From assembly GCA_951406725.2 (NCBI GenBank), contig OX597833.1, positions 49,104,001 through 49,168,000 of the forward strand: DNA of 64,000 nt, in the 5' to 3' direction. The notes beneath the pieces were generated by a model. It had not been told where the DNA came from, did no database searches, and worked only from the letters and a program-made list of their open reading frames with translations. The DNA comes from Octopus vulgaris. Taxonomy: Eukaryota. Below, one piece after another: positions 14,815 through 55,165 of the stretch (position 1 is the first letter of the stretch; each line of letters opens with the position of its first letter). Made by a program: the position numbers and the translations under genes.

Positions 14815-16977
14815 TATGTTTTATAAAGATTATAATCTCTTAATGAAACTCTTTATCTTTTTACATTGAGTCTATTACACCATTGCAATCTGTACAGTTT
14901 GTCCTGTGGCAACTGCAAGAGTCTTATTTACAGTACTGGATTTCTATATCCAGACTTGCTCAAAATATTTGCTGCTATTAACAGATGTCTGAAAAACACG
15001 ACATTGTTATCTGTTTCTGCTTAGATGAATAGGTTTCTTTACAAGTGTCACATTGACATCAGCTGGTTCTTTACATTCAATACTTTTTTTTAATTCTCAG
15101 CATGCTTCTTTCCCATGTCTCTTTGGTTTTTTTTTTTTTGTTGTTTCCATTTTTCGTTCTTAGATTTATTCTTCCCTCCACTTTTTTCCATGATAATGTT
15201 ATTGCTGAGTTAAAATGAATACATTTAAAAAAAATTTTTTTTTTATGGGTGGGATCTATCTGTTGCATGTATTCATTAGAAATAATAACTTTCTGTTTGA
15301 ATTTTTTTTTTTTTTTTTTTTGTTAATGTGATCAACCTAAAACATCCACAGTTGTTGTTACATAAAGCGAATCCTTATTACATGCATTTTATGTATGATG
15401 TGTTGCTAGAATATTTCTTTTTTAACATGATTCTTTATTTCTTCCCACAAAATGTTGCGTTTATATTATAATAATAATATGTAACGAGTAGAATGAGTTT
15501 CCAAAACGAAAGACAGTTGAAATCCATTGCATAGTGATCAGTGATCAGCATTATGCCATTTTTCCCTTCTCTGTTCTTTTTTTATCAATCAAAAAAAAAA
15601 AAAAAAAAAAAGAATATCAAAATTAATATTGAAAGCTTATTGCAAAGTGTTATTAATAACCAAAATGTCAAAATTACCTCCCACTAGGGTTCTGTTCATG
15701 GCCACAGAATAAATAATTCGCTTCTGGTTAGTTACTGATCTTATAGAATGCATATATAACTTACATTACGATATTGCTCAAATGTCTGAACCAGTGCTGG
15801 TGCTACGCATGCATGGAGCTCTTAATCCATACCCAAAACCATGTCATCTGATTGATTGGCAAATATTTTACTAACTGCTTCTCTTTGCTTCTTTCACTCT
15901 GCTAGATACTGCTTTCTCTGAACTAACAAGCTGTTTAGTACTTCTACCCAAGGAGTTTGCTTCTGAACCGAATGGTTCCGGGTTCAGTCCCACTATGTGG
16001 AACCTTAGGCAACTGCCGTCTGCCATAGTCTTGGGCCAACCAAAGCCTTATGAGTGAATTTGGTAAGATGGAAGCTGGAAGAATGTGTTTAGTACTTTTG
16101 CCCAAGCTAGTGAAGGTGCATGGCTCAGTGGTTAGAGTGGCAGGCTTATAATCATGAGGTTGTGAGTTTGATTCCTGGACCAGGTTGTGTGTTGTGTTCT
16201 TGAGCAAGACACTTTAATTTTTGTTGCTCCAGTTCATTCAGCTGTAGACGTCACTAGTGGCAAGATGTATCAGCATTTGCATTTCCCTTGGACCACATTG
16301 CCTGGACTTGAACTTCAGAGGGGAACTTCTAGGTGCAATTCCATAGTCATTTGTGACCAAAAGAGGTCTTTCAAACTACCCAATCCACACTTAACCTTTT
16401 AAACTGAAATCTAATTACTTAACCCTTTAGCATTCATATTGCTCCCTTAACCTTTTAGTATCTAAACTGGCCATATCCGGCCAAAATAGTCTACCTGTTT
16501 TAGGGCCAAACTTGCTAGATCCTGCTACTCATACCTATCCTACAATGTCATTCTAAGGATAAGCAGTCACATCATTGAAATCTTGAGGCTCAAAGATAAT
16601 GCATGAGTAATTAATTCCAAGCAAGGTGCAGGAGTGGCTGTGTGGTAAGAAGCTTGCTTCCCAACCACATGATTCCGGGTTCAGTCCCACTGCATGGCAC
16701 CTTGGATGTCTTCTACTATAGTCTTGGGCTGACCAAAGCCTTATGAGTGGATTTGGTAGATGGAAACTGAAAGAAGTCCATCTGTGTGTGTGTGTGTGTG
16801 TCCATTGCTTGACAACCGGTGTTGGTGTGTTTATGTCCCTGTCACTTAGCAGTTCGGCAAAAAGAGACTGATAGAATAAAATATAATTGTCTATGTTCAA
16901 TGTTATTTAACTAATGTAAAATATTGCTTCCTTATGTTTCTATTGAATCTGATCAAAGTTTTCTTTTTCTTTTCTAG

Positions 16978-51141: not shown

Positions 51142-52719
51142 CACAGACCTGGCTGCATGGTTAAGAAACTTACTTACCAGCCATCCTATGGGTGGATTTG
51201 GTAAACAAAATCTGAAAGACTTTCATTGTGTATATATATATGTGTGTATGTGGTGGGGATGCATTAAATGATGATTGTGATGATGTGCATGTGTGTGTGT
51301 ATTTATAATTATGTATAAACAATGTCCTTTTTTGTAAAAGCTGCGTGGTAAATAAATCAGCTAAAAGTTTCATTTACTGAAAACAAGTTGGATCTCAAAA
51401 TGCTTTCTTATATTATTATAAGTCTTGGAATTCGATTTATTTTCCAAATTTCAAACCATGAGAGATACTTTCCAACATAAACCGGATGGTCAAATGTGGA
51501 AAGTCAAGTGATAACATTCCCCTGAAAATGATGTAATTTTTGAAGTCAAGACGGTCTCACACTTTGTTCTATAATTAGATACTCTCTTACTCATGACCAC
51601 ATATTCAAGTCTTTCACATTTCACTATCTTCATATTTTCAAGGTTGATAAATAGGTTCAAGTAATAACTTTAGCCTATTTGTGTCGTTATCAATTGTTAA
51701 CAATTCCTGTTTTACTGGGCAGTTTGATTTCACTTACGTTTTTTTTGTTTCTTTTCTTTTTGTTTTTTTAAAAATAAATATTTGACTTTTCAAAGTTGTT
51801 GTTGTGTAGCTCCGAGTCAGTGATAGTTGAATAGATCTTTGATTAAATCTATTGAAACTATAAGCGTTCTGTCTTTTATTTATTTTCTCTAGGCAAAAGT
51901 AAACCTAGTATTACATTATCTAATGTCTTTTAAAGACAATAAGGTGTAATTAGTAGGAGATTTTACTGCTATTTCTAACTATTTTGAGCAACATTTAGTG
52001 GCTCATGTGTTTTCAGTATTATTTCAGCATTCTAGAAATATAAAATGGCACTAAATTAGGTGTATTATTATTCCATATTTATACATGGTATTCGGTCAGT
52101 TGTCTAGCCACTTTATCGACTGGTAATGAAATCAATTAACGAAGTTCTTTTAACTTCTTTACCTTCCTTCTTCAAATTGTCTTGTATCTCCTCCGTGTCT
52201 GTCTAACTCTCACCCTGAGGTTGCTGATTACTAATCATGGCGAGTGATGGTACATTTTCACACCAGAGAAGATTTAGCCTTCACAATTTGTTACCTAACC
52301 TGTTTCTAAATATGAATGTTTATCTGGGTAGTCGGCTGGTTGCTGGTTTCCACAGAAGTCAGTAGTGCAACTGGTTAGATAATTCATGTCACTAAAACTT
52401 TCAGATTCTTGATCCTCCAAGAGCCATGTGGTGTATTTAGATAACAGAAACAACTTGAGAGTGATTTTTATATCTCTGATGTTACGGTATTCCTATTTTT
52501 TTTTAGACACACACAACCACACACTAACTTACTCCCACTCTCTCCTCTCTTATGCATATACACACAGACAAATAAACAAACAAAAACACACACAAACACA
52601 CACACTTTTGGGTAAATCAGTCTTATGCTACTCTGAGTTTCAACTTTGGGTGCTCAGGATCATAACTTGCTTGAAAATCTTGTGTACTCACTGTTGAAGC
52701 TCAGAGTAACAACATACTG

Positions 52720-53125
52720 TTTGTGGCCTTGATGTGGCAGGAACGCTTGCGTACTCTTATGATCCCTAGAGCATGTGCTAGTGGGGGACGTGTTCCCCTG
52801 ATAGGTTTAACCTTACTGGTTTGGTCAAAGAGGAGGAGTCAGACTAAAGTATACACATCGGCCCTCCAGATTCGGGGGTTGTGCTATAGGCTAACACCCT
52901 ATACCTTAAAAAAAAAGCACCTGTTACAGAAACCAACAACGGTTCATTTAACACTAATTCAGTTCTTGGGATCCAGAGACTGATGACGCGCTGTAGCCAA
53001 ACCCGTCAGAAAGTTACAGGGCCGAGGGCAACCTTGAAGGGCAGTTCAAAGCTGCTCTCACAGAAGAAGCCCATCCTTCTTGGAACCTGGAATGTGAGAA
53101 CACTTTGGGAGACAGGAAGGTGCGA
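52720..53125 (+). mobile_element. RTE-clade LINE 5' fragment (5' UTR + APE endonuclease start)
   Basis: ORF from 52983 MTRCSQTRQKV...LLGTWNVRTLWETGR. GTWNVRTL is the APE domain start motif; homology breaks off right after it. Confidence 0.75.
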
Positions 53126-53454
53126 ACAAAATACTGACTCAACCAAAATAAAATATATTATTAATCTCTCCTTTTTTCTGAATGCTCCTTTTTCTGACAG
53201 TTAGTAGAAAACACAGACATGAATGTGTGTGTGTGTGTATGAACGGTGTCTTCAGAACTATATTACACATGTCCTTTAGTAAGTTAGTTTGAGAGACAGT
53301 TTTAGCTGTTATTTTGAGCAAGTCAAGTGACTACATAGAGGCTCACTCATTATCTTGTCCAGCATCAGTGCATTTGAACAACTCAGTTCATAAAATTGCA
53401 AGTTACTTCTCTGAGAGGTAGTTTGTAGTCTAACTCGAAAACTAAATTCTGAAA

Positions 53455-53974
53455 CATTATTTACATTGACGGATATTTGTCCTCATCTTGTTTCTTGTTA
53501 ACACAACGTTTCAGCTGATATACCCTCCAGCCTACATTAGGTGTCTTGGGGAAATTTCGAACTTGGGTTCTCATTCCTAAGGTATTTTTCGAGGTTATTA
53601 TTATTATTATCATTACTATTATTATTCAGGTTGCTGCCTGGAATTGAACTCAGAATCTTGGGCTTAGTAGCCGGGGCTCTTAATCACTACACCATATGGC
53701 ACAGTGGTTAAGAGCCCAGGCTACTAACCCCAAGATTCCGAGTTTGATTCCAGGCAGTAACCTGAATAATAATAATTATTATTATTATTATAATAACAAC
53801 AACATTGAAAAATACCTTAGGAATGAAAACCCAGGTTCAGAATTTCCTCAAGACACCTGATGAAGGCTGGAGGTTATATCAGCTGAAATGTGTTAACAAC
53901 AAACAAGATGAGGACAAATATCTGTCAACTGTAAATAATGTAAATGTACATAATTCCTCATCTCTTAAATATAG
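53455..53974. mobile_element. Palindromic retroposon-like insertion: two head-to-head copies of tRNA head + (AAT)n + hammerhead-like motif, 34-nt tail, 15-bp TSD
   Basis: 53455-53695 is the reverse complement of 53696-53940. TSD AACTAAATTCTGAAA at 53440-53454 and 53975-53989. A box 53697-53707, B-box-like 53742-53750, CTGATGA 53857-53863, GAAA 53885-53888. Confidence 0.8.
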
Positions 53975-54075
53975 AACTAAATTCTGAAAGTGTTTGTGTA
54001 TAAAGCTCTCTATTTTTAAATGATTTTATTGAACTGCTTTTATATATATTTATTCAATCTCACCATTGTTTTCAG

Positions 54076-54957: not shown

Positions 54958-55165
54958 CGGAGTAAACACATAAATGTGAAACAAGGTGGAAAAAAGAGTA
55001 CTCAAATACCAGTGGTAGAGTAATATGCTTTATTTTAAGCAGCAGAAAATTCAACAAAATCTGTTACTCTGAGTTTCTCGTTGCCAAAACTGTCTGATGA
55101 ACGGCAACGAGAAACTCAGAGTAACAGATTTTGTTGAATTTTCTGCTGCTTAAAATAAAGTATAT
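54955..55165. mobile_element. Fold-back element in (TA)n with 63-bp inverted arms
   Basis: Arms 55023-55085 and 55103-55165; unique extension 54955-55022 shared with the 39.4-kb copy. Confidence 0.78.
55085..55133 (+). ncRNA. Minimal type I hammerhead ribozyme motif
   Basis: CAAAACTGT-CTGATGA-ACG-GCAA-CGA-GAAA-CTC-A-GAG-TA^ACAGATTTTG. Full core, stem I (CTGT/ACAG plus CAAAA/TTTTG), GNRA-capped stem II with one A.A mismatch, near-palindromic stem III, GUA cleavage triplet. Confidence 0.65.

Follow-up and report, generated by a model that had tools for sequence, protein, structure and literature searches.

A head-to-head palindrome in the Octopus vulgaris genome is a decayed insertion of the terminal repeat, with a tRNA-like head, of an abundant Penelope-type element

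The palindrome at positions 53440-53989 of the window, a 64,000-nucleotide stretch of the Octopus vulgaris contig OX597833.1, is an insertion, now decayed, in which two copies of an abundant Penelope-type element's terminal repeat lie back to back. The repeated unit is the pseudo-LTR of a decayed protein-coding element and not a separate non-coding SINE. In the explanation favoured here, which is held with somewhat better than even confidence, the Penelope pseudo-LTR carries a tRNA-derived, putative Pol III promoter, and the joining of two cDNAs head-to-head gave the locus in the window.

The two arms (53454-53695 on the minus strand and 53696-53941) abut without a loop at CCATATGG (53692-53699), where they meet through a self-complementary CATATG, and they are 85% complementary over 246 nt. 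This bears out an earlier note on this DNA, made from its letters alone, which had described two arms of about 240 bp joined head-to-head. Positions 1-3 of the tRNA and the hairpin upstream of the head are missing from both arms at this junction. Compared with the family consensus, the arms show 89-91% identity. The left arm, at 89%, is an inverted tailless copy composed of the tRNA-like head, (AAT)n and a hammerhead, and its end belongs to the proximal of the two 3' end classes of the family. In the right arm, on the plus strand, the putative tRNA-derived head spans 53693-53765, with the A box at 53697-53707 and the B box at 53742-53750. The boxes, the reciprocal CpG decays that separate the B boxes of the two arms and the (AAT)n stretch had all been placed correctly. 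The hammerhead-like motifs that had been proposed are also found. The minimal type I hammerhead of the right arm (53852-53894, plus strand) has an intact core and lacks 3 nt across the predicted cut; that of the left arm (53500-53545, minus strand), judged from the sequence and a 30-copy consensus, has a mutated core with stem III and the cleavage triplet intact, GAAACGTT being retained. The body of the right arm, at 53823-53978 on the plus strand, corresponds to residues 1-54 (about 54 codons) of a Penelope ORF, as shown when the family model was compared with the window by tblastn, and the first in-frame ATG lies at 53823.

Only the right arm carries the Penelope tail (53942-53978, plus strand), which is recognised from the bimodal 3' ends of the family and from the pairing of tailed with tailless arms elsewhere. 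An extension confined to this arm had been noticed before, but its length is 33 nt up to the target site duplication (TSD), or 37 nt up to the family 3' end at 53978, and not 34 nt. Likewise, the 15-bp direct repeat that flanks the locus (plus strand, 53440-53454 and 53975-53989) is present, but the first 4 nt of its right copy overlap the end of the element. The same 4 nt are the family's own 3' end, and the true TSD is therefore 11-15 bp.

Other repeats occupy the same window. Two small inverted-repeat elements that have 16-nt words in common (52615-52722 and 55023-55165) are MITE-like. The segment 52800-53130 may resemble the 5' region of an RTE-type LINE, possibly with an HDV-like ribozyme. 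A tRNA-headed repeat at 16117-16330 is 75% like the head of the palindrome over 59 nt; it has another body and is an ordinary SINE of another family.

How widespread is the unit? A first look at the genome gave 4,887 family candidates. Exact matches to a pair of 20-23-nt motifs at the ribozyme junction number 9,362 for the intact form and 1,702 for the deleted form, and the reversed-pattern control gave none; thus, the features in the window are not due to chance. An 18-mer from the head has 6,097 exact matches in the genome, again with no match to the reversed control. The consensus of the 30 best copies contains an intact minimal type I hammerhead, in which an extra base after position 9, a G10.1-C11.1 pair and a palindromic stem III are found. 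Consensus and folding agree on the core (CUGANGA / GAAA / NUH, stems I and II, palindromic stem III), as the two decayed arms together had been taken to imply; 73 of 161 arms keep this core. Rfam and ARAGORN called neither a tRNA nor a hammerhead, and both identifications are based on inspection of the consensus and on alignment.

The head scores z 6.4-8.4 against shuffled sequences when compared with host tRNAs. The best match is tRNA-Arg (z 8.4), and the others reach 6.4-8.2. Both the A box and the B box of the consensus are perfect, judged by the standard consensus words, and the cloverleaf pairing is lost. Since the tRNA-like head is present in the consensus, it is not a chance capture at a single locus. 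The head is best read as tRNA-derived, with A and B boxes, and several host tRNAs score nearly alike as its possible parent.

What does the unit belong to? Among the first 30 loci, the 690 nt upstream of the head are common to two, and these shared flanks, which were used to locate the parent, turned out to be the end of an RT/GIY-YIG ORF. When the end of the ORF served as the query, all 30 loci found run 32 nt past the stop codon into the tRNA-like head, (AAT)n and onward. With the start of the ORF as the query, pseudo-LTR sequence precedes 29 of 30 loci, in some of them from head position -2 or +4. The reading frame is open back through the tail and hammerhead to an ATG at +136. The order of the element is ORF stop, 32 nt, tRNA-like head, (AAT)n, hammerhead, tail and ORF start, and the pseudo-LTRs on both sides of the ORF hold its first codons (30/30 and 29/30 loci). 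These queries confirm that the 3' part of the unit matches the pseudo-LTR of an autonomous-type Penelope element. The idea that the Penelope partner is merely borrowed is not borne out: the unit is the partner's own pseudo-LTR, with the start of the RT/GIY-YIG ORF as its 3' half.

The family model is 2,979 nt long with an open ORF of 838 codons. The near-complete copy L261, which is preceded by an inverted arm without a tail, matches an uninterrupted 2,730 nt of the model; none of the loci fetched is a fully intact copy. A real copy matches the RT model Pfam RVT_1 (E 1e-9). The Pfam GIY-YIG model gave no match to the two endonuclease (EN) pieces, and a PDB search with the element protein, which bears on the same assignment, returned 0 matches; the neighbours of the EN piece in the Atlas (0.96-0.97) fall in clusters where 12-20% of members have GIY-YIG. 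The homolog P0008 shares 57% identity with the model over 830 aa, the hammerhead-encoded N-terminus included and with the frame conserved. Identity to a multicopy protein of Anolis, which we take to be PAc, is 37% over 812 aa, and to the other local family 29%. The 47-aa stretch that links RT to EN has no Zn-finger pattern of the Neptune/Nematis type, and a place in the Penelope/Poseidon clade is tentative. On these protein comparisons, the element is an EN+ Penelope-like element, with one ORF encoding RT and then a GIY-YIG endonuclease.

A genome-wide search with Pfam GIY-YIG recovered other Penelope families only, and of the 50 GIY-YIG loci examined, none has the tail apart from inserted copies. 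A search for a Poseidon family to serve as a control within the genome found none, all 30 top matches being the tRNA-headed family itself, and no relatives were found in viral contigs. A different young Penelope-like family (L061, L067 and L070; e.g., G000:C2:17352100-17360100) has many intact frames of 781 codons and is inserted in (TA)n; the hammerhead in its pseudo-LTR has a core of the U3/A8 type. Loci L363-L368 hold yet another RT family, whose frames are long and open and whose sense strand is T/C-rich; it has no relation to the tRNA-headed element at the DNA level.

Most of this anatomy is familiar. The EN+ Penelope/Poseidon elements, such as Anolis PAc (PMC11167929), Adineta Pen2a (PMC3846280) and D. 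virilis Penelope (PMC2377424), likewise have a single ORF of about 840 aa with RT and, at its C terminus, GIY-YIG, and a pseudo-LTR that holds a hammerhead and the first ORF codons. They also share with the octopus family a 30-40-nt tail at one end, an inverted 5' copy, a variable TSD and a palindrome at the inverted junction. In Anolis PAc, as in the octopus element, the ORF start, hammerhead and tail overlap (PMC11167929). The minimal hammerheads of metazoan Penelope-like elements (PLEs) lack loop 3 and have an extra nucleotide between 9 and 10.1, G10.1-C11.1 and a palindromic 15.2-16.2 (Cervera and de la Pena 2014, PMC4209133), and that of the octopus is alike. An insertion layout like the one seen here has been described in PMC8557442 and PMC3846280. 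Thus, the inverted tailless arm, the tail of about 35 nt, the variable TSD and the minimal hammerhead are ordinary Penelope traits, and the locus looks like an ordinary insertion of an unusual Penelope. What differs is the promoter region: the Penelope pseudo-LTRs in the available descriptions have TATA/Inr-like or DPE-type motifs, whereas that of the octopus has a tRNA-derived A/B-box head.

In 200 arms from outside the first search, the 3' ends form two groups about 35-40 nt apart, one at body positions 141-160 and the other at 182-185. Head-to-head pairs, 84 in all and in part drawn from shared loci, comprise 65 that join a tailed to a tailless arm, 5 with both arms tailless, 1 with both tailed and 13 that are unclear. 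A flanking direct repeat of 8-16 nt is present at 33 of 53 two-ended insertions and at 2 of 53 control positions. The proposed signature of Penelope machinery, a tail on one arm with variable TSDs, therefore holds for the family, and the behaviour of a fixed-TSD TIR MITE, which had been named as refuting it, is absent: the arms are asymmetric and the TSDs vary in length and sequence. The claim that the unit is processed by its ribozyme does not fit its ends: pseudo-LTR copies end 50-70 and about 90 nt beyond the predicted cut and start at the tRNA-like head, not at the cut.

The 5' end of the pseudo-LTR family is discrete. Of 30 head-anchored matches, 25 end at -7 to +2 relative to tRNA +1, with a per-base end rate about 90-fold that on the ORF side, while ORF-anchored matches extend a median of 395 nt (in both sets the first matches listed on C1, a few duplicated loci among them). 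Exact 18-mer counts are 6,097 at head +32, 4,561 at head +2, 1,101 at -32 and 884 at about -140, so that the copy count falls 4.1-fold across the start of the head and 1.25-fold over the next 110 nt or so upstream. Pseudo-LTR-only copies with this sharp 5' end dominate the family. It is likely, judging from the sequence, that the tRNA-like head lets the terminal repeat spread as short SINE-like copies.

How might two such copies have come to lie head-to-head? The Anolis Poseidon protein nicks both strands, and its RT starts at two internal sites that bracket the tail (PMC11167929). In the octopus family, a cDNA begun at the distal site would give the tailed arm and one begun at the proximal site the tailless arm, so that each insertion would take two passes of reverse transcription, with both cDNAs templated mostly by RNAs of one source. 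The cDNAs would reach the 5' end of the RNA, where the hairpin upstream of the head could snap back or the palindromic CATATG could anneal, and their head-to-head joining would then yield the locus in the window. Arms are joined through the fixed small hairpin upstream of the head at 204 loci and through CATATG, as in the window, at 23. At L209, each arm retains its own half of the hairpin, which the joining of two separate cDNAs would predict. Of 9 loci that carry a subfamily base in the ribozyme core, 5 have it in both arms (expected 1.1, P 0.0003), and rare variants, a tenth of all variants, are common to both arms at about four times the shuffled rate, one locus contributing 7 of 26. The two arms thus often derive from one source. 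Copying of a whole arm by fold-back is disfavoured, since the 3-nt deletion discussed below is discordant between the arms in 19 of 22 informative pairs, unless the deletion arose after insertion.

Which polymerase reads the element? The perfect boxes with lost pairing, the start of 25 of 30 head-bearing copies within 9 nt of tRNA +1 and the lack of a TTTT terminator make use of the head by Pol III likely, and the whole element might be read by this polymerase. TTTT is absent from the 2,979-nt model (P 0.003 by shuffling, P 0.023 by synonymous permutation), whereas an order-2 Markov null gives no significance (P 0.21). Three copies of a different young Penelope family have 7-9 TTTT per 2.3 kb, a comparison that sets a consensus against single copies; decayed copies of the tRNA-headed family have 0.41 per kb. 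Among 19 related ORF segments from metagenome contigs (T 0.19-0.24), the mean is 2.1 TTTT per kb and 2 have none. In the host, 22 of 30 tRNA-like genes have T4+ within 13 nt. A TATA-like word lies about 35 nt upstream of the head, so a Pol II start there would fit too. Moreover, a 5' palindrome in the pseudo-LTR and self-priming have already been described for ordinary Penelope elements (PMC3846280), and the 5' pile-up therefore needs no Pol III. A simple A/B-box pattern matched 0 of 17 relatives with at least 200 nt downstream, the pattern being crude and the hammerhead pattern in the same script having missed visible ones. In three standard RNA-seq runs, both directions are equally represented and about 70% of reads continue into unrelated sequence, as for embedded transcription; they revealed no discrete RNA starts or ends. 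Both the step where the head begins and the fold-back junction recur in the reads, as loose ends.

The strongest alternative, and still an unlikely one, makes the head a passenger: a tRNA retrocopy or old SINE, with an (AAT)n tail, would have been caught in the 3' UTR, Pol II would transcribe from the upstream TATA-like word, and the short copies would be ordinary Penelope copies truncated at the 5' end, either at the start site or at the hairpin. The head plus (AAT)n does resemble a minimal SINE, pseudo-LTR 5' palindromes are known (PMC3846280), and short and ORF-linked copies are similar in age with no diagnostic difference. Relatives also have ORF stretches free of TTTT, among them L377, which has a TATA-like word in its repeat. 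Against this, copy starts coincide exactly with the start of the head, both consensus boxes are perfect though the pairing is lost, the whole 3 kb lacks TTTT, and the 30 head-anchored matches include no donor SINE that joins this head to a different shared body. A bolder form of the favoured explanation is rather unlikely. It posits an autonomous coding retrotransposon transcribed end to end by Pol III from a captured tRNA promoter, hence the TTTT-free sense strand of 3 kb. Such an element would shed SINE-like copies of its terminal repeat, which is how a SINE like Sm-alpha would arise from Penelope, and some 1,700 identical deletions would record cleavage in vivo.

The recurrent deletion removes the 3 nt immediately before the predicted ribozyme cut. 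Genome-wide, it is present in 1,702 copies against 9,362 intact ones (15%), and a neighbouring 2-nt deletion with longer microhomology reaches 1.3%. In the arm sample, it is found in 30 of 193 arms, whereas other sites with 2-nt microhomology have 0-3 deletions. Does it simply mark a subfamily? That reading was rejected: no linked SNP was found in 112 tests, and the deletion is equally frequent on the two subfamily backgrounds (8/43 and 38/186). ORF-linked arms are weakly enriched (18/65 versus 8/64, P 0.047). Deleted copies do not cluster regionally on C1 relative to intact ones (P 0.27, not significant). Within G000:C1:106-116 Mb, the common subfamily is dense (38/100 deleted and 13/47 intact matches) and the other is sparse (4/63), a contrast which suggests that the subfamilies differ in insertion time or source.

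The deletion is possibly the footprint of hammerhead cleavage in vivo. Minimal PLE hammerheads are predicted to need a dimer (PMC4209133), and the octopus hammerhead may sometimes cut the RNA in that form; RT crossing the cut through the 2-nt microhomology could then account for the 3-nt loss in the right arm. That RT bridges a cut RNA in this way has not quite an even chance of being right, and later slippage in DNA or several frame-preserving source variants may instead have given rise to the deletion. A pile-up of 5' truncations just past the cut is not counted as support. The 14 of 81 starts seen there include three deletion arms clipped by BLAST and one tandem duplicate; the cleaned count of 10/80 gives P 0.002 for that interval and 0.15 for any, and a palindromic word there confounds it.

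The independent non-coding SINE lineage of the earlier note, with a 3' part from Penelope and moved in trans, is very unlikely. Short copies do outnumber ORF-linked ones by about 4:1, with a discrete 5' end, and some of the solo copies, which retain RT start sites and promoter boxes, could have been secondary sources. In addition, Sm-alpha of Schistosoma is a tRNA-derived, hammerhead-bearing SINE. However, the entire unit, head included, lies inside the coding element. Once near-duplicates were removed, which left 334 of 390 arms (282 of them from outside the first search), no variant told 72 short arms from 99 ORF-linked ones; the best of 133 tests gave P 0.012 at a CpG site, a result that argues against a separate SINE. 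Even less tenable, and largely refuted, is an origin as a retrozyme, with circular RNA monomers cut by the ribozyme, or as a MITE-like DNA transposon: the locus resembles a long inverted repeat and L027 has a tandem array of hammerhead units, but ends map away from the cut site, TSDs are 8-16 nt and variable in sequence, arms are asymmetric, and most copies are not tandem. The L027 array (L027:522-1783) consists of five extra units of about 190 bp, each a hammerhead plus tail, upstream of a full unit and within one 10-bp TSD; it is a retrozyme-like product of the same Penelope element.

Has such a unit been seen before? Schistosoma's Sm-alpha and Sj-alpha elements (PMC6765202, PMC2770079) share a tRNA-derived Pol III promoter followed by a hammerhead, and a high copy number. 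By contrast, the available descriptions present them as tandem, non-coding SINEs whose hammerheads are canonical and for which no Penelope parent is named, whereas the octopus unit is a coding element's terminal repeat. Animal non-LTR retrozymes, like non-autonomous PLEs (PMC7229834; bioRxiv 10.64898/2026.07.22.740005; MRC1, PMC8557442), resemble the octopus unit in being short, in bearing a hammerhead or being related to pLTRs, and in their presumed movement by PLE enzymes. They are mostly tandem and the available accounts describe no tRNA head, whereas the octopus unit has not diverged from the autonomous pLTR. Thus, the pairing of a tRNA promoter with a hammerhead was already known from Sm-alpha, and A/B boxes in a Penelope repeat were not found in print in the accessible parts of these sources. 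The literature search found neither a tRNA-headed Penelope pseudo-LTR nor a cephalopod hammerhead SINE; Repbase and Dfam may already list the family as SINE or Penelope. The term 'hammerhead' is absent from the supplement of PMC13282606, whose repeat library is on Zenodo. No recurrent 3-nt deletion like that in 15% of octopus copies was found for minimal PLE hammerheads in the available text of PMC4209133.

In this family a single sequence serves as terminal repeat, predicted promoter, ribozyme, ORF start and SINE-like unit, which blurs the divide between SINEs and autonomous elements. Repeat libraries are likely to file the family under both SINE and Penelope. Its thousands of compact insertions can be used to study how Penelope makes inverted arms and tails, and the recurrent deletion is a candidate genomic footprint of Penelope hammerhead cleavage, where the Anolis study saw no cleavage in RNA-seq reads (PMC11167929). 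The family is also a direct test case for the production of retroelement mRNA from Pol III.
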